The notes: generated by a model not told the origin, from the letters alone. A DNA stretch of 26,895 bases from Promethearchaeota archaeon (GCA_008080735.1 SHMW01000063.1:1-26895), one strand, 5' to 3'. Counted from the first letter of the stretch, positions 245 to 22,552 are shown. Program-made: numbers and translations.

Positions 245-1021
245 ATGAATGTCTCACAATTGAATAAAGCACTCACGAGCTTAATCAATAAAGCAAAATT
301 AGCGGAAAATCATAATAATATTGATGGTGCCATAGAAGGTTGGGTAAAAGTTTCTGAATTAGCATTGAGAGCTTCTAAAAACCCCAATTTTTCTACTTCA
401 TATCGAAGGATGTTGATGAATAGAACAGAGGGCATCTTGCAGCATATAAAAGAATTAAAAGATATAAAAAACCAACCAAAGCAAAGGAAAGTGAGGACAG
501 AGAAACCAGAAATAGATGCCGAAACAAGGGAAAAAATGGATCAAGCCCTATCAGAGTCATTGCCAAAAACACCTAAGAAAATACCTCAAGAATCATCTGA
601 ACAAGGCTCTCAAGAGTCTCATAATACAAAGAGAGAAAAGCAAGAACAACACGATCAGATGACTATGAAAAAACCAAAAAAACCCAAAAAACAAGATAAT
701 TCAAATAAAAATAATTCTTGGGATTCACAATTTAAAGATATGCCAGAAGGATTCCGAGAGTTAAAAACTTCTGAAAATTTTGATGTGCTTACTCCCTTTG
801 ATGAGGAATCAGTGAAGAAACGGCTGAGCGATAATGTTGATATGAGTACATTCAAACCAGAAATGAGCGGAGAGAAAAATAAAGGGAATTCATCGCAAAA
901 TAATGAAGATATTAAGCTTGAAAAGAAAGATCAAGATGGAAATGTAATTTGTTTTGCATGTGGACAAGCAAACCCTCCAGATGCAAAGAAATGTCGCAGT
1001 TGTGGCACAGAATTACAATAA
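245..1021 (+). CDS. MIT-like domain protein with disordered linker and C-terminal zinc ribbon
   Basis: The N-terminal ~75 aa have an MIT-like three-helix pattern (LINKAKLAE...IDGAIEGW...RRMLMNRTEGILQHIKELK). A low-complexity K/Q/E/S linker follows, then C-terminal CFACG-x9-CRSCG. Confidence 0.6.
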   Translation: MNVSQLNKALTSLINKAKLAENHNNIDGAIEGWVKVSELALRASKNPNFSTSYRRMLMNRTEGILQHIKELKDIKNQPKQRKVRTEKPEIDAETREKMDQALSESLPKTPKKIPQESSEQGSQESHNTKREKQEQHDQMTMKKPKKPKKQDNSNKNNSWDSQFKDMPEGFRELKTSENFDVLTPFDEESVKKRLSDNVDMSTFKPEMSGEKNKGNSSQNNEDIKLEKKDQDGNVICFACGQANPPDAKKCRSCGTELQ

Positions 1022-14141: not shown

Positions 14142-14939
14142 ATGATTATTGAAATACTTGTAATAGGGAATGAAATCTTAATAGGAAAAACTCAAGATAC
14201 CAATTCCAATTGGATGGCAAAAAGAATTACTAAATATGGTCATCGAATACATAGGATTACCACAATCGGAGATTCCCTGGATGAGATCGCAAGAACAGTT
14301 CAAGAAATATTAGAGAGAGCCCCAGCTATGATTATAACAACTGGAGGGCTTGGCCCCACTTTCGATGATATGACCAACGAGGGAGTCGCAAAGGGATTGG
14401 GAAGAGAGTTAGTGTTGGATAAGCACGCATATAATATGATAGAAAAAGCCTATAAACAAGCTTATGAACAAGGTATTTTGAAGTTAGAGGGAATGACGAA
14501 GGAGCGAGAAAAAATGGCCTATTTACCAGAAGGATCTATCCCTTTACCTAACCAGAGAGGTACTGCACCAGGTGTAAAAATAGAAGAAAAAGGAACCTCG
14601 ATATTTATTTTACCCGGTGTCCCCGCAGAAATGAAAAAAATGTTTAATAATGTTATCAAACCAATTCTAAAAGAAGAAGAAGGTAAATTTTACCAAAAGG
14701 GATTTATCCTCTCAGGCATAGGAGAAAGCCAAATCGCACCGTATGTCACTGAACTAGAAGAAAAAAATCCAGAACTATGGATCAAAACACATCCAAGAGT
14801 GGGTTTAGCGGTGGAAGTCGAAATATCCGTCACTTGTTTTGACAGACCTAATTGTGAAAATTTGATAGATAAAGTGTTGAAAAAGCTGAAACAGACAGTT
14901 AAAAATTTAGGAGGAATAATAAAAAAAGAATATGACTAA
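14142..14939 (+). CDS. CinA-N/MoCF-biosynthesis-like (COG1058-type) pyrophosphatase, without the NMN deamidase domain
   Basis: IGNEILIGKTQDTN, TTGGLGPTFDDMT, N..GTAPG, LPGVPAEM and GIGES motifs; 265 aa. Confidence 0.88.
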   Translation: MIIEILVIGNEILIGKTQDTNSNWMAKRITKYGHRIHRITTIGDSLDEIARTVQEILERAPAMIITTGGLGPTFDDMTNEGVAKGLGRELVLDKHAYNMIEKAYKQAYEQGILKLEGMTKEREKMAYLPEGSIPLPNQRGTAPGVKIEEKGTSIFILPGVPAEMKKMFNNVIKPILKEEEGKFYQKGFILSGIGESQIAPYVTELEEKNPELWIKTHPRVGLAVEVEISVTCFDRPNCENLIDKVLKKLKQTVKNLGGIIKKEYD

Positions 14940-14986
14940 ATAAATCAAAACCTTTAAATACTTTTGAGAATAAAAACGCTTTCTTA

Positions 14987-15059
14987 TGATGACACCTTGC
15001 GGGTGTTAATACTCAATAAGCTCTCGCATAGTGCGTTTCGGCTTATATCATCGTCATCA
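14987..15059 (-). promoter_or_regulatory. SECIS element (eukaryote-like) in the selD 3' UTR
   Basis: Minus strand reads UGAUGAC-G-AUGA-U-AUAAGC-CG-AAA-CGCA-CUA-UGCG-AGA-GCUUAU-U-GA-...-GUCAUCA. It has an AUGA/GA core (15051-15048 / 15014-15013), helix AUAAGC/GCUUAU, unpaired AAA, an apical mini-helix and a basal helix UGAUGAC/GUCAUCA. Confidence 0.85.
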
Positions 15060-15060
15060 A

Positions 15061-16092
15061 TTAATAATCAGTTATTTCTAAAAACTCCACATTCTCAGAC
15101 ACTCGTACAACACCAGGTTGTTTTTTATCTATTTGACCGATAATCCAATTTGGCACATGGTTACTACCAAGCGCATTGGTAAAGTCTTGAACTTTAGATT
15201 CATCGATTGCCAATAACATTCCACCAGCAGTTTCATGAGCTCTGCACTCCTCGAATGCATAACCGAGATCAGCAGATAATTCTTTGGAAAGCTTAATTGA
15301 AGGGACTTTCTCAATGATCGCTGAGAGATTTATATGTTGGAGCATCTCTCGTGTATGCCCCGCCAATCCAAAACCAGTCACATCAGACATCGCATGTACA
15401 AAGGAAAAATCGGAAAAGGAATGAATAGTTTTAACTACCTCTTGGTTTGGTGTGGTCATTACCTTGATTGCGATATCAATTGATTTTTGGAGTTCTGCCT
15501 TTGAATAGGTCTCCAGAATTTCCGGCATATCTTTAAGGACTCGATATGCTGCCATAATCCCTTGTAGACCGATCGGTTTAGTTAGTACTAATTTATCACC
15601 ATTTTTCACTCCGCTTTTACGGATAATGCTATCGTTATCGACAATCCCAGATGCTTCCCCGCCCATTAATGGCCACTCACAATATATCGTATGTCCTCCA
15701 ACTACATTCGAATCGATTTTTTGTTCCATAAAATTCTTAATACCTTTTAAAATACCTTCTGCAATGTAATCAGGTGTATTCGTATTTATTGCTAGAAAGA
15801 TAAGCATTCCTCCATTAATTTCCGGAACGTTCATCGCGAATATATCATTCGTGACGTTACAGGCAGTGATTTCTCCTTGTATTTCGGGTTCATCAATGAT
15901 CGGAGTGAATATGTCTAAATTTTTCACCAAAACCATTCTAGTTCCTTGAATCGGGATAACTGCTGCATCCTCTATATCACCCCCCAATCCCGCTCTCTGA
16001 AGTAGATCTTCCAAACTTTTTGGTCCAAGCTTACATGATCATCCGTGAATTTTAACCTGTGAAGTTAGTCTGAATTCTTTTTCTTGAGACAT
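15061..16092 (-). CDS. selD: Selenide, water dikinase (selenophosphate synthetase), selenocysteine-containing, 343 aa
   Basis: The in-frame extension above the ORF-track TTG reads MSQEKEFRLTSQVKIHG(TGA)SCKLGPKSLEDLL, with GAGGGTG RBS before ATG 16092. Body motifs: EDAAV, DIFTPI, NDIFAM, GGHT, LTKPIG, DVTGFGLAGH, ETAGGML. Confidence 0.95.
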
Positions 16093-16175
16093 CACCCTCA
16101 GTCCTTTATATTTATATTATCAAATTTTCTTTTTGAGTGTTCTTCTAAATTTATTATCTTATTATTACAAGAGCA

Positions 16176-16520
16176 TTAGAAAAGCTTTATAGATTTTTTC
16201 TGCTCCATAACTTTTTGTTTCAAATCTTTCAATAATGTATTTGCTTCTTCTACGGTTATATTATTTTGAACGATGTCGCCCTTATCTAATGAGACTGCAC
16301 CTAGTATTTGAGATCCTAAATGGCATTCCAAACATTTAATTGATGGATTGGTTAAACACTTAGATATTACTAAAGATAAATTCTCACCATACAATAAAGA
16401 TCGATTTTGATTTTTAGGATTAAAGAAATATAGATAATTATAACTGGAATCTACTCTATTAAACAAAATATAATACTTGTCGTTATGTGTAAACATAGAT
16501 TCAATTTCTTTAATGCTCAT
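16176..16520 (-). CDS. Hypothetical protein with CxxC(H) motif
   Basis: 114-aa ORF co-oriented in the selD cluster; contains KCLTNPSIKCLECH. Confidence 0.7.
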   Translation of the reverse strand: MSIKEIESMFTHNDKYYILFNRVDSSYNYLYFFNPKNQNRSLLYGENLSLVISKCLTNPSIKCLECHLGSQILGAVSLDKGDIVQNNITVEEANTLLKDLKQKVMEQKKSIKLF

Positions 16521-16537
16521 ATCTTTTTTTCTGATTT

Positions 16538-16771
16538 TTATTTTTTTCCTATTCTTATATGATATTTGTTATCATCTACTTGATTTGCTTCAATTTGATA
16601 CCCATTCTTAGAAAATGGCTTTTTGATATTATCAAATTGTTCTCTGTTAGAATAAAATTCTAACACTTTTCCCTCACCCAATTTTTTCAAATTAATTTTT
16701 AATTTTAACATTAGATTAGTACAAGTAAGATCAACATAATTCGGTATTTCATTCATTTCTTCAAGTCGCAT
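16538..16771 (-). CDS. Divergent TusA/SirA-like small protein
   Basis: 77 aa. It follows the TusA pattern (DLTC..LMLKLK..LKKLGEGKVLEF.....DNI......GY.I......Y.IRI.K) but lacks the CPxP prolines. Confidence 0.65.
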   Translation of the reverse strand: MRLEEMNEIPNYVDLTCTNLMLKLKINLKKLGEGKVLEFYSNREQFDNIKKPFSKNGYQIEANQVDDNKYHIRIGKK

Positions 16772-16822
16772 TTTTTATTATAACCTTGAATTCCTATATT
16801 TTCACTTTAATAAAATCTAAAC

Positions 16823-18073
16823 TTAAAAGAAAATAATTCGTTTATGGGTAATTGAGTTATCTTGTTTAGATATAATTAATCGTGTCAATTCAATATTATT
16901 AATCTTTTCGATATAATTATTTAATTTATTCACTAAATCAAAATTCCGAATTTTTAAAGACTCATCAAGTACATAATATTCTAAAAACTCCATATCTGAA
17001 GTCGCTAAGATGATATCTTGTATATTAAACATTTTATCCTCACTGCTTAATTTATGCTCAGTTGGTAAATTATAGGTCCCATCTTCAATAAAAACAACTT
17101 TCGTGGGGATTTCATGATTCGCACAAGCCATCGCAAAGGAAAGCCCTCCAAAAGTCCATTCTGATCCATAGGGATTATGTGTAATAAATATAATTATAGG
17201 AGGCTTAATTTTAGATGCTTTCTTTTTATTTAGTTTATCTTTATCGAAATCATTGCAATATTGAACTATTCCGCAAGAAGCTGAGAGAATTAGATTATTT
17301 TCCTCAAATCTCTCGACAATTTTATTTAAATTACAAAATAAATAATGTGGGATTACATCATCCGATTGAAAATATTCCTTTTCTTTTTTTTCTCGGATAT
17401 AGCCTCGAGCGGTTCCGCAACGAGAGCATGATAACATGATAAAGCGCAAATCATTCATCCTTGCCTTTTTTTCTAAATACCTCAATTTTTTCCCTATATT
17501 TTCATATTCAGACGGTTTTTGCCCTATATGTCCCATATGAATTCCATCCAGGTAAGTATAAAGTTCTGGATCTAATTTATAATCAATTGCTTTTTCTAAT
17601 AATCTCAAAGCATTCACGGTTGTTCTGCTCATATAGGGTCCTTGAAATTCTAATAATCCTATTCTGTTTCCATTAAATTGATTATGAATAGAATTAAGCA
17701 GTCCATTCCAAAAATCTGAATCTCGTTGTAGGATTGTATTGGAATGAATCTCGGTGTTATTTAATTCTGTTTCTATATCAAGTTTTTTTCTTTCTTTGCA
17801 TTCCAATCCTAATAATTTTATTTCTTCAGAATCCAAATTACAAAAAAAATTATCTACTGAAATTAGTTTTTTCCAATAGGGACGGTATCTTTTGTCTATT
17901 AAACTGAAAAGCGCATCACCTGTCAAAAATAATCCAAATTGACTAATGTCAATAGCAGCCTCAGAGGTTTTAGCATTTAGGTTTATGCTGTTTCCTCCTT
18001 TATCAAAGCTTTTACTCAACCATCCTAATCTTTCCAATGGGATATGTTCCGTAAAAAGAAAGTGTATTTCCAT
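16823..18073 (-). CDS. DsrE/DsrF(/DsrH)-family multidomain sulfur/selenium relay protein
   Basis: N-terminal unit FGLFLTGDALF (DsrH-like). Middle unit GPYMS...YTYLDGIH...SCSRCGTARG (DsrE/TusD-like). C-terminal unit ITHNPYGSE...VFIEDGTY...ESLKIRN (DsrF/TusC-like). Confidence 0.78.
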   Translation of the reverse strand: MEIHFLFTEHIPLERLGWLSKSFDKGGNSINLNAKTSEAAIDISQFGLFLTGDALFSLIDKRYRPYWKKLISVDNFFCNLDSEEIKLLGLECKERKKLDIETELNNTEIHSNTILQRDSDFWNGLLNSIHNQFNGNRIGLLEFQGPYMSRTTVNALRLLEKAIDYKLDPELYTYLDGIHMGHIGQKPSEYENIGKKLRYLEKKARMNDLRFIMLSCSRCGTARGYIREKKEKEYFQSDDVIPHYLFCNLNKIVERFEENNLILSASCGIVQYCNDFDKDKLNKKKASKIKPPIIIFITHNPYGSEWTFGGLSFAMACANHEIPTKVVFIEDGTYNLPTEHKLSSEDKMFNIQDIILATSDMEFLEYYVLDESLKIRNFDLVNKLNNYIEKINNIELTRLIISKQDNSITHKRIIFF

Positions 18074-18135
18074 TTGATTTTTTATGTTAAATAAAAAAAT
18101 TTATGAAATTTTTATTAGAGGTTTTTTCTATATAT

Positions 18136-18363
18136 TTATGGGACATTTATTTTTAATTCCCACACACCAGGTTCAAGCAAAGTTGATTTAACGCCGTATC
18201 CAAGCTTTTTCATGTCAGTCGGTATTGTATCATTAGCGGCAGGTGGGTGGTCAGTTTTGACGATTAAAACATCTCCAGAACTTAATTCCTTTACCTTTTT
18301 CCTAACTGCTAATAGACAGTAAGGACATACTTTTCCTATAATATCTAATTTATATTCTGTCAT
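18136..18363 (-). CDS. TusA/SirA/YedF-family sulfur (selenium) carrier protein
   Basis: LDIIGKVCPYC...LSSGDVLIVKTDHPPA...IP; 75 aa; AGGTGA RBS upstream. Confidence 0.9.
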   Translation of the reverse strand: MTEYKLDIIGKVCPYCLLAVRKKVKELSSGDVLIVKTDHPPAANDTIPTDMKKLGYGVKSTLLEPGVWELKINVP

Positions 18364-18376
18364 TTCTCAAATTCAC

Positions 18377-18877
18377 CTAAGGCATTATCAATTGGACTAA
18401 TTGCATTATCAATGTGTGGAAAACTATGGCACCAGCAATCGTTCCCGCAACAAAGAACAGCGATTTTAAATTTCCTTCAGAAGTCATTACAATCTGTCGT
18501 AATGGACATCCTCCTAATAGGACACCTATAAATCCCATTCCAAATCCGCCGATTATCGCTAAAATAACATATGAGAGAGTGCTAAGTCCTCCAGGTGCTC
18601 CGGGGATCGGAGTTAGAGGGTCAGTTTGATTTGCAATCCAATAGAAATTAGGAAACGCAGTCGGCACAATAGCCCAAAATATAAAATATCCTATAAAAGC
18701 TCCGCCAATTAATGCTAAATATCCAAAGAATAATCGAGTATGTTTGAACATAAAGAGATCTCTTAGACCTCCAATTGAGCAAAATCCAGACCTTTGCGCT
18801 AAATATCCGATAATAAAACCCAATATAAGCGTGATTATCGGTAGTACTAACGCAGTATTGGTAAGAAGACTAGTCAT
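18377..18877 (-). CDS. YeeE/YedE-family membrane transporter, C-terminal half
   Basis: Hydrophobic; motifs LAQRSGFCSIGGLRD and LLGGCPLRQ....EGN. Confidence 0.88.
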   Translation of the reverse strand: MTSLLTNTALVLPIITLILGFIIGYLAQRSGFCSIGGLRDLFMFKHTRLFFGYLALIGGAFIGYFIFWAIVPTAFPNFYWIANQTDPLTPIPGAPGGLSTLSYVILAIIGGFGMGFIGVLLGGCPLRQIVMTSEGNLKSLFFVAGTIAGAIVFHTLIMQLVQLIMP

Positions 18878-18878
18878 T

Positions 18879-19394
18879 TCAGAATTCCCTCCGTTTCATA
18901 TAGAATAAAAGGAGAACTACTCCGACTGCTACTCCTCCCGCTATTGATAAAATGCCTATTAATGCGATAAGATCTCCATAGGCAAATCTTAACGCTAATC
19001 TATATGGACATGCTCCTACTAATAGGGCAAAATTAATCACTGCAATTCCTCCAAGAAAGTACAAGATATAGTTCAGAATTGAACCCTTTTTTAAACGGAA
19101 CTCTTTTTTTCTTTTCGCAGCAATATAACCACCAATCAGAACTCCAACAATAGTCAAGACTGGAGTGATTGCTGAAAAAGGAGCTATTCCTAAAGTTGTC
19201 CCTATAAAAGCATTAGTAATTGCATTAGTTAGGTCTCGTGTGTGACATGCAACACAAAATCCATAGGCTTCGGGACCCCCTGCGCTAAACAGTAATGCTT
19301 GAACAAAAGCGGCTAGAATGCCGATAATAATGCCTAAAAACGCGGGGAATCTAATAATACGTAAAAGACTTTTTTTTTGAGGTGCTTTTTCCAT
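18879..19394 (-). CDS. YeeE/YedE-family membrane transporter, N-terminal half
   Basis: Hydrophobic; motifs GFCVACHTRD and GACPYRLALRFAYGDL; its stop lies 1 nt before the next ATG. Confidence 0.85.
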   Translation of the reverse strand: MEKAPQKKSLLRIIRFPAFLGIIIGILAAFVQALLFSAGGPEAYGFCVACHTRDLTNAITNAFIGTTLGIAPFSAITPVLTIVGVLIGGYIAAKRKKEFRLKKGSILNYILYFLGGIAVINFALLVGACPYRLALRFAYGDLIALIGILSIAGGVAVGVVLLLFYMKRREF

Positions 19395-19448
19395 TTTTTT
19401 ACTCTTTTTTTTTAATCATTTAAAATATAACACAGATAAGTTTAAATG

Positions 19449-19491
19449 GTTTATAAGTTTTTTCGATAGTGTTTATCGATTGATTTCGATA
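19449..19491 (-). promoter_or_regulatory. Putative BRE/TATA promoter of the yedE-selD cluster with adjacent TCGATA repeats
   Basis: Minus strand CGAAAAAA-CTTATAAA about 55-70 nt upstream of the ATG at 19394. Half-sites are TCGATA (19463-68), TATCGA (19474-79) and TCGATA (19486-91). Confidence 0.5.
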
Positions 19492-19600: not shown

Positions 19601-22552
19601 TTATGAGAGAAGTATATCAATTTTTTTTGATAATCGTTTTTGGAGTTCGAATGGCCCTTTATAATGTATCATTAGCCCAATCTCATCATGAGTATTGCTC
19701 GCGAGATGAGATTTAATTTCTTTGTCGATACGTAAAAAATATCTAAATTTGAAATTTGTACCAGTTTTTAGTTCATCAATTTGAAAGTATTTCGGAAAAC
19801 CACTTTCTTTCAATATTTCCATATATTCTGGAATTCTTAAAGTGATTTGTAAATCTTTAAAATCATAATTGGAGGGATTATTCAATCGTAAACCGATTTC
19901 TATCTGGTTTCCCATCGTCTTAATTCGTTTAAACAAATTAAGCTCTTTAAAATCCGTAATTTCTGACTGGATTTTTGGGGAATAGAGAGAATTATTGACT
20001 ATCTTCGCGTCAAGTCGATTTTTACTAATAAATTTCAACACATATTCCTTAATTTGCTCTTTATTTAGTCCTAAATAGTTTGAGAGGAGATCAAATTCAA
20101 TAGGATTCATAATTTTAAGATAATGCTTTAATTGATGGAAATATAGTTTTTCTTTACTCTTTTCCATGAATTTTTTAGATTTATGTATCAATAATTCTTT
20201 GCTATTATTCCATTTTTCCATAAAAGGTTGAATATAGAGCTCAAAACCATTCTTCTCCCTTTTAAAGATCTCCTCTTTTTCAATGATATTTTCAACTTGA
20301 TTTTCTGTATCCTCGATAAATGATTTGATCTGAGAGTTATTCATATCAATCAACTTTTTAGCTTCTTCAAATCCTCCTTTATTAATTAACAAATCGAGTT
20401 TTGACTCTAATTTATTAAAATTTTGATTAAATTTCTTGATTCCTTCAATTCCGTATGATATGATTGAATGAATATGTCCTTGAACGATTTGGTATGTTAA
20501 TTCCTCACTTAATCCATCTAGCTCGCTTATATTAGAAATTTCAGCAGGTATTTCAACAGAAGATAAATCGTCTATGATTTTTTGTTTCATATCTTTTATT
20601 TTACGGTCCAGATTATTTAGAAATATCTGAATTTCAATCTTTACCGCAACCCATCTGCTCAACAAATCTTTAAAGATGTCGTCAAATTCAACATTGTTAA
20701 TAAGCATTTCCCGAATATCCACATCTAATTTAAAAAGATTTCTTCTTAATAAGGAAATGTAATTGAATTTTTCGTGAATCGTCGGTTCGGAATACCACAC
20801 GATCTCTTCATTCTCGATGCTTGTATTTTCTAAGGACTTATTTTTAATGTAATCAAATTGTGCTTTAAGTATATCAATTCGGTCAATTAATATATTGATT
20901 TTAGCTTGTAAATCTGATTTATATTCTTGTTTCTTTTCTTCACATATATCCGTGATGAAGCCTTTAATAATACTTAATTCATCGATGATTTGGATTTTAG
21001 TCTCTTCCCATTCCTCTAAAAGATCATATGCCAGTCTTTTATATTCGAAACGATTAATCTCATTATGAAATTCCTGGATATCCTTTATAATCCTGTCATA
21101 CATTTGATTTAGTTGGATTTCAGTGGTATTAAACTTAAAATTTTTTATATAACTATTTAATTTCTTTCGAAAATCCACAGGGACCTTTTGAAATTCAATA
21201 ATTCGCTCTTGAAATGTAGAAAGCTTATCATTTATTTTCTTGATATATTCATCAATATGAGGATATTGGTCATTGATTTTATCCAAAGTATAGATTATTT
21301 CTTTTCTTACATCTAAATCATTTTCATCCTCTAATTTGTTACTCAATTCAATGGTTATCCACAAAGCAATTTTTCGGCTTTCTAAGATAAGGCATATATT
21401 TTGGAGAAGTTGTATGGTTTTTCTCCGCTCCCTCCAATATTTTGATTCCAATTTGTAGATTATTCGGCTAATTTCATTTTCAATCTCAATTTGATACTCA
21501 TCAAATAAGCGGCGGAATACTAAGGCAATTATTTTTCTAACATTTTCCGAGGGATTTTCCAATTCTTCAAAAAGATTAGGAAAAATGTAATCAATATTAT
21601 TCTGCGCTACTTGATAAAGAGCATTTCCTAAAGCATTTTTGAAGGAATTGTCGCTTGATTCGGTGATTGAATTGATTAAGTTGGCCCATGTCTGATCAAA
21701 ATTGTTTTCTGCGATATTAATAAGGGCATCAATTATTTTAACTTGAATACGGAAACTCTTATTTCTTAAAAAATTGATGATTTTTGGGATGAACGGTATT
21801 ATTTCCGAAGATTTTTCTTTCCCAATTTCTCCAAACAACCAAAACACAAGTTCTTGAACACGAGGTTTTTCGTTATATAACAGATTAAGTAAAATGTAGA
21901 AGATCTTTTCTTTTGAAAGGAAATAATTACCTAATATTCTTAATAATTCTGCTGATGCTCTTGCGACATCATCATCTTTATCTCGCAGATTAATTATAAC
22001 CATTGAAAGTAAAGGTTCGATTTCTTTAATTCGTGTATAATCTTGGTTGATGATATCTTGCGTAGTATTTATAACAGATAATTTCACCTTCCAATCATTA
22101 TCCATTAATTTCTCGGTATACTCATTTATGATTGATTGTAAGATTTCCCAATCTATGTGTAATGAAAGAATAAGAGTACCAATGATTTTAACAGCAAGTC
22201 GTCGAACAGGAGGATCATTATCGTATAATCGTGACCTAATATCATTTAATGGCTCTATTAACAGATTTGGTCGATATTTGGCGATTTGATACAAAATTTC
22301 AAGCGATATCAACCGGATCCAAGAATCTTGATCATTTATTAGACTGGATGTGTGTTTTACTGCTTGAAGAGAAATTCTGGGAGATTTGTCGCAAATTAGA
22401 TTTAAAAGATTGAGGCAATTAAGAAGGATTTCCTTATCATCAGTGGATGAATAAATCTCTACGGCTTCAAAAATCTCATCTGCCGCTTTATTATATTTTC
22501 CTTGTATAATAAAAGTTTCTATGTCTTTTAAATCCAAATTTACAATCCGCAC
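19601..22552 (-). CDS. Large HEAT-repeat protein with coiled-coil region, PCI-like winged helix and C-terminal Ig-like domain
   Basis: HEAT units (LINDQDSWIRL, LYDNDPPVRRL, LMDNDWKVK, LRDKDDDVAR, LENPSENVRK). PCI-like IEFDLLSNYLGL.KEQIKEYVLKFI....LDAKIVNNSLY. Beta-rich tail (IEIGLRLNNPS..DFKDLQITLRIP). GTG start. Confidence 0.75.
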   Translation of the reverse strand: MRIVNLDLKDIETFIIQGKYNKAADEIFEAVEIYSSTDDKEILLNCLNLLNLICDKSPRISLQAVKHTSSLINDQDSWIRLISLEILYQIAKYRPNLLIEPLNDIRSRLYDNDPPVRRLAVKIIGTLILSLHIDWEILQSIINEYTEKLMDNDWKVKLSVINTTQDIINQDYTRIKEIEPLLSMVIINLRDKDDDVARASAELLRILGNYFLSKEKIFYILLNLLYNEKPRVQELVFWLFGEIGKEKSSEIIPFIPKIINFLRNKSFRIQVKIIDALINIAENNFDQTWANLINSITESSDNSFKNALGNALYQVAQNNIDYIFPNLFEELENPSENVRKIIALVFRRLFDEYQIEIENEISRIIYKLESKYWRERRKTIQLLQNICLILESRKIALWITIELSNKLEDENDLDVRKEIIYTLDKINDQYPHIDEYIKKINDKLSTFQERIIEFQKVPVDFRKKLNSYIKNFKFNTTEIQLNQMYDRIIKDIQEFHNEINRFEYKRLAYDLLEEWEETKIQIIDELSIIKGFITDICEEKKQEYKSDLQAKINILIDRIDILKAQFDYIKNKSLENTSIENEEIVWYSEPTIHEKFNYISLLRRNLFKLDVDIREMLINNVEFDDIFKDLLSRWVAVKIEIQIFLNNLDRKIKDMKQKIIDDLSSVEIPAEISNISELDGLSEELTYQIVQGHIHSIISYGIEGIKKFNQNFNKLESKLDLLINKGGFEEAKKLIDMNNSQIKSFIEDTENQVENIIEKEEIFKREKNGFELYIQPFMEKWNNSKELLIHKSKKFMEKSKEKLYFHQLKHYLKIMNPIEFDLLSNYLGLNKEQIKEYVLKFISKNRLDAKIVNNSLYSPKIQSEITDFKELNLFKRIKTMGNQIEIGLRLNNPSNYDFKDLQITLRIPEYMEILKESGFPKYFQIDELKTGTNFKFRYFLRIDKEIKSHLASNTHDEIGLMIHYKGPFELQKRLSKKIDILLS

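Follow-up and report, generated by a model that had tools for sequence, protein, structure and literature searches.

The window, that is, the whole stretch of DNA analysed here, is a 26,895-nucleotide (nt) sequence from a Promethearchaeota archaeon (GCA_008080735.1, SHMW01000063.1:1-26895), corresponding to contig C63 of a 4.1-Mb metagenome-assembled genome that is 93% complete. Running on its minus strand from position 19394 to 15061 are seven genes in the same direction, in which a putative sulfur/selenium import-and-relay cassette is followed by the gene for a selenocysteine (Sec)-containing selenophosphate synthetase, SelD. How selenium is delivered to selenophosphate synthetase without free, toxic selenide is a long-standing question, for which YedE and YedF have been no more than comparative-genomic candidates since 2008-2015. 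The operon places a putative importer, three Cys-bearing carriers, a CxEC protein and SelD in one transcription-unit-like block, and so offers a defined protein set, in the archaeal group nearest to eukaryotes. Its open reading frames (ORFs) were confirmed at these coordinates:

18879..19394, minus strand: yedE-N, N-terminal half of a split YedE/YeeE-type membrane channel, 171 amino acids (aa)
18377..18877, minus strand: yedE-C, C-terminal YedE half, 166 aa, starting 1 nt past the yedE-N stop
18136..18363, minus strand: tusA1, TusA/YedF/YeeD-like carrier, 75 aa
16823..18073, minus strand: triple DsrE-fold protein (the fusion), a single chain of 416 aa
16538..16771, minus strand: tusA2, divergent TusA-like carrier, 77 aa
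16176..16520, minus strand: p114, 114 aa, with a C63-x-E-C66 (CxEC) motif and of no known family
15061..16092, minus strand: selD, selenophosphate synthetase, 343 aa, with Sec at codon 18
14987..15059, minus strand: element of the Sec insertion sequence (SECIS) type in the 3' untranslated region of selD, with an AUGA...GA core, unpaired AAA, an apical mini-stem and a side hairpin

The intergenic gaps from yedE-N to selD are 1, 13, 62, 51, 17 and 83 nt, and the ORFs, family scores and TGA at codon 18 agree with an earlier note, made from the sequence alone, which had described seven co-oriented minus-strand genes ending in a Sec-SelD. The parts list and the membrane-to-carrier-to-SelD gene order given there were likewise upheld. 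The nearest database proteins to those of the window carry Lokiarchaeota or Promethearchaeota labels.

For both YedE halves the best-scoring family, by a wide margin, was seleno_YedE (TIGR04112): yedE-N matched positions 3-133 of the model with 68.4 bits, with 29.8 bits for Pfam Sulf_transp and 16.5 bits for TsuA, and yedE-C matched its C-terminal part with 76.3 bits versus 26.7 bits for the thiosulfate transporter TsuA. Each half covers part of the model and scores below its cut-off of 200 bits. Cys47, Cys50 and Cys129 of YedE-N are invariant in 57 of 57 homologues, as are Cys33 and Cys124 of YedE-C in 58 of 58, and yedE-C adjoins yedE-N in every related locus. In several Methanomicrobiales genomes with no detectable SelD, the two halves apparently occupy one frame with a single stop (TGA, TAA or TAG) between them (for example, G281:C6:9959-10888 and G336:C232:635-1576).

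TusA1 scored 53.1 bits against Pfam TusA (PF01206), above the gathering threshold, and its best NCBIfam model was YedF PRK11018 (40.9 bits), followed by TsuB/YeeD (30 bits); in its motif, C13-P-Y-C16, Cys13 holds the TusA catalytic position. The more divergent TusA2 also exceeded the Pfam TusA cut-off (33.9 versus 28.6 bits), its Cys16 (in TCTNLM) was invariant in 59 of 59 homologues, and its gene comes after the fusion gene in most cassettes. A role of TusA2 as a general SelD neighbour in Lokiarchaeia was ruled out by its presence in 6 of 46 genomes, all of them carriers of the cassette or of a remnant. For p114 no significant match was obtained in Pfam or NCBIfam (best E-values 0.065 and 0.068), nor any match in a protein atlas search. 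Its homologues follow tusA2 in 16 other loci, including Methanoregula loci without an adjacent SelD, and the CxEC motif is kept in 16 of 17 homologues.

In the 416-aa protein encoded between the two tusA genes, the sole domain seen with Pfam was DsrE, at residues 293-384. An AlphaFold2 model built on 31 homologues (predicted local distance difference test, pLDDT, 83.6; predicted template modelling score, pTM, 0.87) and profile comparisons led us to divide the chain as follows:

Residues ~1-128 (nt 17690-18073, minus strand): N domain, a degenerate DsrE fold
Residues ~130-272 (nt 17258-17686, minus strand): middle DsrE/TusD-like domain, with C216 and C219 in CSRCGTARGY
Residues ~288-416 (minus strand): C-terminal DsrF/TusC-like domain, assigned by sequence from its matches to Pfam DsrE and TIGR03010 TusC

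In a fold search, the middle domain (residues 134-265) superposed on YchN, DsrE and TusD with Z of 14.5-15.1, and profile alignment placed C216 at the persulfide-carrying Cys78 of Allochromatium DsrE (2hy5_A), the RG motif that comes next matching too. Among 31 sequences C216 is invariant and C219 near-invariant, giving a CxxC motif. The N domain folded alone had nine best PDB matches that all belong to the DsrE superfamily (Z 6.0-8.3), and its best chains within DsrEFH/TusBCD entries were DsrF and TusC, not DsrH/TusB. Moreover, ten N-terminal domains gave no DsrH or DsrE match in Pfam at E up to 10, and they contain no conserved Cys, hence no DsrH/TusB-type cysteine. Comparison of the three domains with one another by hhalign gave nothing significant. 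The name 'DsrHEF' in the earlier note is thus apt for the number of DsrE-fold domains and for the middle and C-terminal ones, but not for the first, which is not specifically DsrH-like. As modelled, the protein joins three DsrE folds covalently, and a single one of its domains carries the active site; the three DsrE-fold units that define DsrEFH/TusBCD are present, but within one chain. It is not a long-form YedF (TIGR03527, 13.8 bits versus a cut-off of 110), the TusA and DsrE parts here being separate genes, and a search for shorter or split forms of the fusion returned just five half-length or fragmentary proteins. DsrE/DsrF-like gene pairs of two Asgard families (f8 and f19) were considered as orthologues and rejected, being just 26-34% identical and having neither yedE nor tusA beside them. 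The closest relatives of the middle domain that are not fused are found at L105:2249-7326, where genes for ArsR, DsrE, DsrE/F, an FeS protein and DsrH follow one another and run divergently to ArsP and a set of three thioredoxin_3 genes.

Translated from the ATG at 16092, selD reads ...KIHG-U-SCKLGP, with the TGA of codon 18 at 16039-16041. Its product scored 187.4 bits with TIGR00476 (cut-off 125) and 272 bits with NF010705, and has AIRS and AIRS_C domains and the G-(U/C)-x-C-K active-site loop; TGA occupies the Sec codon in six of the six SelD orthologues examined from neighbouring cassettes. The hairpin in the selD 3' untranslated region is kept in six orthologous loci, with compensatory changes in 6 of 20 pairs, invariant ATGA and GA, unpaired AAAC, an apical mini-stem and the side hairpin ACACC...GGTGT. 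An Rfam scan of 14800-16200 gave no SECIS family match, and the single-sequence fold energy of the element was not significant (z -0.85); the hairpin agrees with the eukaryote-like SECIS of Asgard selD (PMC11227280). Elsewhere in the host genome we found SepSecS (491 bits) and a PSTK-like gene (179 bits, under its cut-off of 290). No tRNA-Sec was detected in this 93%-complete genome, the best RF01852 hit reaching 37.9 bits versus a threshold of 47 and aragorn giving none. Judged by SepSecS, the PSTK-like gene and the conserved SECIS, the Sec system of the host is probably genuine. Neither DsrC/TusE (TIGR03342) nor DsrA was found in the same genome, so that the canonical client of a bacterial YTD-type relay is missing here and SelD is the sole candidate client in the operon.

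We examined conservation of the locus in a one-genome-per-species scan (which yielded 136 relatives, the best 80 being retained) that, with loci from other routes, gave 87 loci. The order yedE-N, yedE-C, [tusA1], fusion, tusA2, [p114], brackets marking genes not always present, is kept in Asgard archaea and in Methanoregulaceae (Methanolinea and Methanoregula). The order including SelD is shared with six other Asgard genomes, whose fusion proteins are 42-65% identical to that of the window, and linkage of selD to the cassette in relatives, on which the earlier note had made its proposal depend, was therefore found. SelD directly follows p114 in G000, G140, G191, G109, L013, L015 and L062, and these loci form one well-supported clade in a tree of the fusion protein. 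In L047, which falls elsewhere in the tree, selD is divergent and upstream of yedE-N. Juxtaposition of cassette and SelD thus appears, from the tree and gene orders, to reflect about two independent events. A genome of the same family, G035, retains a remnant locus (L107:4127-8708, in G035:C26) with an ORF of the same 983-aa length as the one upstream of the window's operon, a 44-aa piece of the fusion C-terminal domain (75% identical), an intact tusA2 and a Sec-selD, yedE, tusA1, p114 and most of the fusion having been deleted. We therefore take the cassette-SelD block to be the ancestral state here, reduced afterwards by partial deletion.

Three Asgard cassettes without an adjacent SelD, but with Sec-SelD elsewhere in their genomes, have a LysR regulator directly upstream (L009:5640-6581 in Lokiarchaeum ossiferum, L016:4625-5560 and L101:4971-5888). 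All three were matched best by NF040786 (selenium metabolism-associated LysR), whose 156-162 bits stay under the cut-off of 250 and compare with 81-101 bits for the next model. An independent association of carriers with SelD was found in Methanolacinia petrolearia DSM 11571 (G255; L095:884-3395), the 'orphan SelD' archaeon of Lin et al. Its apparent operon encodes a DsrE-like protein (118 aa, CGPCCKARG), a TusA (75 aa) matched best by the model of the YedF N-terminal domain, a SelD of the Cys type and, last, methanogenesis marker 8 (DUF2099), and would be, in effect, a split YedF beside SelD in an archaeon. The homologues obtained for the M. petrolearia DsrE-like protein included none from Methanococcus.

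The operon has several known relatives. In bacteria, a YedE-like gene, tusA, dsrE and two more genes make up the YTD or DsrEFH type II sulfur-relay cluster, and in cable bacteria this YedE-TusA-DsrE(FH) arrangement has been proven to relay sulfur (PMC13293266). Common to that cluster and the window are a YedE/YeeE-like protein, a TusA and a DsrE with one active Cys accompanied by two DsrE-fold units, with a flow that would run from transporter to TusA to the DsrE cysteine to a client. The window differs in its split transporter, in having three DsrE units in one chain with the Cys unit in the middle, in the extra second TusA-like and CxEC proteins, and in having SelD, not DsrC, as neighbouring client. 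The likeness is one of gene order and folds. Bacterial YedE and YedF, the latter combining TusA with a CGxC-bearing DsrE-like domain, occur together with SelD; co-occurrence of split archaeal YedE with SelD was reported in 2015, when YedF was called absent from archaea (PMC5322559). With this pair (FdhT/FdhU) the window shares its best-fitting models, TIGR04112 for the YedE halves and YedF for TusA1. The SirA domain and DsrE-like CGxC of long-form YedF are mirrored by a TusA followed by a CxxC DsrE-like domain, and both are linked to SelD. Unlike bacterial YedF, the window has separate TusA and DsrE genes and its DsrE part is a triple-domain protein, and the family is present, too, in methanogens that yielded no SelD.

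The thiosulfate-uptake pair YeeE-YeeD (TsuA-TsuB) and YedE1E2 belong to the same transporter superfamily and have conserved pathway cysteines and an adjacent TusA-like partner; YedE1E2, which imports zero-valent sulfur (PMC10812762), is also encoded by two genes. Compared with YeeE-YeeD, TsuA/TsuB models score here well below those of YedE/YedF, and the DsrE/TusA/SelD extension lies downstream. The TusA-TusBCD-TusE and DsrEFH-DsrC systems have in common with the window their DsrE folds, the equivalent of Cys78 and of the TusD cysteine at C216, and a TusA partner, but the window has a single chain and not alpha2-beta2-gamma2, lacks a DsrH-type conserved Cys and a detectable TusE/DsrC, and has an extra Cys219 that creates the CxxC. 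Finally, in Methanococcus maripaludis under selenium depletion, a split yedE rises by +5.3 to +5.4 log2 and adjacent tusD/tusA by ~+4.6 log2, placing them among the most strongly induced genes, the Tus induction being left unexplained by the authors (PMC11097638). The likeness to the window is by component type, since there the yedE and tus genes are at separate loci and not beside selD.

YedE, DsrE and TusA go unmentioned in the Asgard selenoproteome paper (PMC11227280), and among papers since 2010 the M. maripaludis study (PMC11097638) is the only one to name 'selenophosphate synthetase', DsrE and TusA together. The earlier note knew of no description of this arrangement, which has to be narrowed, given the known YTD/DsrEFH type II layout and the known split YedE with SelD. 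What appears to be undescribed is a triple DsrE in one chain, the membership of tusA2 and p114 in the cassette, the joining of the cassette in an operon with an Asgard Sec-SelD, its association, as an alternative, with a LysR of selenium type, and its spread in Methanoregulaceae without detectable SelD.

On balance, and with a little more belief than doubt, we interpret the first six genes as a fused, extended archaeal form of the YTD-type sulfur/selenium import-and-relay cassette, with interchangeable clients, that is coupled here to SelD as an accessory selenium supply. Accessory supply of SelD, probably by scavenging, would be its most likely role in this Lokiarchaeia-type Asgard lineage. 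Points in favour of selenium are the cassette-SelD linkage kept in one Asgard clade together with the second, divergent case, the LysR_Sec_metab-like regulators beside the three other Asgard cassettes, the independent DsrE-like/TusA/SelD operon of M. petrolearia, and the induction of yedE and tusA/tusD, ~25-40-fold, on selenium starvation of M. maripaludis (PMC11097638). The operon in turn offers an explanation for that joint rise, and the cassette links the selenium candidates to the newly characterised YTD/DsrEFH type II sulfur relay. Mechanistically, YedE-N and YedE-C would pair into one YeeE-like channel lined by the invariant cysteines and import reduced or zero-valent selenium or sulfur species. 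On the cytoplasmic side, TusA1 would accept these through its CPxC motif, in the way that YeeD serves YeeE, and carry them on Cys as persulfide or perselenide. The cargo would pass to Cys216 of the middle DsrE domain, held on a covalent pseudo-heterotrimer of three DsrE folds, where Cys219 could resolve the Cys216 adduct and free HSe-. TusA2 and the CxEC protein p114 may serve as downstream carriers, adaptors or thiol reductants, and the Sec18/Cys20 loop of SelD would accept the selenium to yield selenophosphate.

A stronger version, which we entertain only tentatively and at less than even chance, is that some Asgard archaea took over a YTD-type sulfur-relay cassette and turned it into a dedicated selenium pathway from membrane to SelD, under selenium-type LysR control. 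The order that such a pathway would follow, from YedE-N/C to TusA1, to the single-chain DsrE trimer, to TusA2 and/or p114 and finally to Sec-SelD, is put forward just as guardedly. If true, it would be the first complete selenium route to selenophosphate synthetase and an archaeal counterpart of bacterial YedE/YedF, and p114 would represent a new selenium-handling protein family.

A number of findings weigh against the accessory-supply interpretation or against selenium specificity. In an evenly sampled set of 201 Asgard genomes, SelD is present in 94 and the full-length fusion in six, the same six that have a strong split YedE; five of these have SelD, and in the sixth the contig ends 390 nt past p114. 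The cassette is patchy even inside the genus, and most SelD-positive Asgard genomes lack it, in the co-occurrence test that the earlier note had suggested. An even sample of 151 Methanomicrobiales genomes included 31 with the fusion and 23 with a split YedE whose halves (TIGR04112, 60-87 bits each) are as good as those of the window, none of the 23 having SelD, although TIGR04112 is meant to be limited to SelD-bearing selenium users. The lone SelD-positive genome in this sample, that of M. petrolearia, is without the cassette. All conserved cysteines are kept in the cassette proteins of methanogens where no SelD was found. Searched for SelD, five Methanoregulaceae genomes (two being single chromosome records) gave as best matches HypE or an unassigned PurM-family protein without the G-C/U-x-C-K loop. 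The cassette is thus dispensable for Sec use, being neither required for it nor confined to selenium users. Given the Methanoregulaceae cassettes without detectable SelD, a TIGR04112-type split YedE is an unreliable marker of archaeal selenium use. Moreover, SelD adjacency is limited, on the fusion tree, to a single clade and one additional case, and so to few independent events; the 83-nt gap ahead of selD is AT-rich and leaves room for a separate selD promoter; an M. maripaludis yedE deletion was without a clear selenium phenotype (PMC11097638); and all transfer steps, of selenium or of sulfur, are ones that we infer. The earlier note had named in advance, as a ground for giving up its proposal, a cluster equally common in genomes without a selenium trait. 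This is largely what the Methanomicrobiales present, so that a strict tie of the cassette to selenium falls, and the proposed selenium role retains the Asgard SelD linkage and the LysR neighbours on its side.

The cassettes of Methanoregulaceae whose genomes yielded no SelD must have some other client, most simply sulfur. In Methanoregula, p114 is followed not by SelD but by a BcrAD/BadFG-type ATPase, with an HGD-D homologue, a C_GCAxxG_C_C redox protein and OsmC nearby, and these neighbours suggest a different client of the relay, which may be an ATP-driven reductive one. Both facts favour a purely sulfur-handling cassette also in the window, in which YedE-N/C would import zero-valent sulfur, polysulfide or thiosulfate, the persulfide would be relayed to assimilation or to cofactor or tRNA thiolation, and SelD would be a neighbour or a co-regulated gene that receives nothing. 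The proven sulfur relay of cable bacteria, the zero-valent sulfur import by the two-gene YedE1E2 and the match of C216 to the persulfide-carrying Cys78 of DsrE are in keeping with this explanation, which we regard as rather unlikely, though deserving serious attention. It leaves without a reason the tight cassette-SelD order, maintained while the fusion proteins diverged to 42-65% identity, and the second, divergent juxtaposition; nor does it fit well with the selenium-type LysR regulators flanking other Asgard cassettes, with the far better scores of both YedE halves on seleno_YedE than on TsuA, with the response of yedE and tusA/tusD to selenium starvation in M. maripaludis, or with the failure to find DsrC/TusE and DsrA in the host genome.

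We consider improbable, by a good measure, a function in homeostasis, detoxification or sensing of sulfur, selenium or metalloids, with the membrane pair exporting or sensing (as SoxT1B does for SoxR) and the carriers buffering selenide or persulfide instead of feeding SelD. YedE was proposed as a possible exporter by Lin et al., and Hyphomicrobium uses a YeeE-like protein as a signalling unit (PMC11582611); an arsenic-resistance-like island adjoins one methanogen cassette, and the nearest unfused DsrE relatives are beside ArsR, ArsP and thioredoxin genes. These metalloid-island contexts are, however, single cases, no regulator or efflux gene lies within the window's operon, and induction on selenium starvation in M. 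maripaludis points to uptake, not export. That the seven genes form no functional unit and adjoin by chance finds a foothold in the 83-nt gap ahead of selD, but 87 loci share the cassette order and seven genomes the order with SelD, and this conserved synteny makes chance adjacency very unlikely indeed.

The operon of the window is flanked on both sides by genes unrelated to selenium:

19601-22552, minus strand: upstream 983-aa ORF, with an ORF of the same length at the same position in G035
14142-14939, plus strand: downstream MoCF_biosynth (CinA/MoaB-like) gene, convergent to selD

Some 55 nt 5' of the yedE-N start we observed TCGATA-type repeats and a TATA-like box, cttataaa (19449-19491, 19395-19470), a possible operator and promoter of the operon. 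Among the Methanoregula loci, p114 and the ATPase gene overlap start to stop in L025 (8501-11889) and form one 397-aa ORF in L034 (8499-9692), with a further case at L049:8370-9567; the HGD-D homologue is convergent to the p114-ATPase pair. The methanogen cassette that adjoins the arsenic-resistance-like island is that of one Methanomicrobiales genome (L096:1-6566), where the island comprises ArsP, thioredoxin_3, DGC, an SBF (PF01758) transporter of the kind that includes Acr3, a low-molecular-weight phosphatase and a P-type ATPase.

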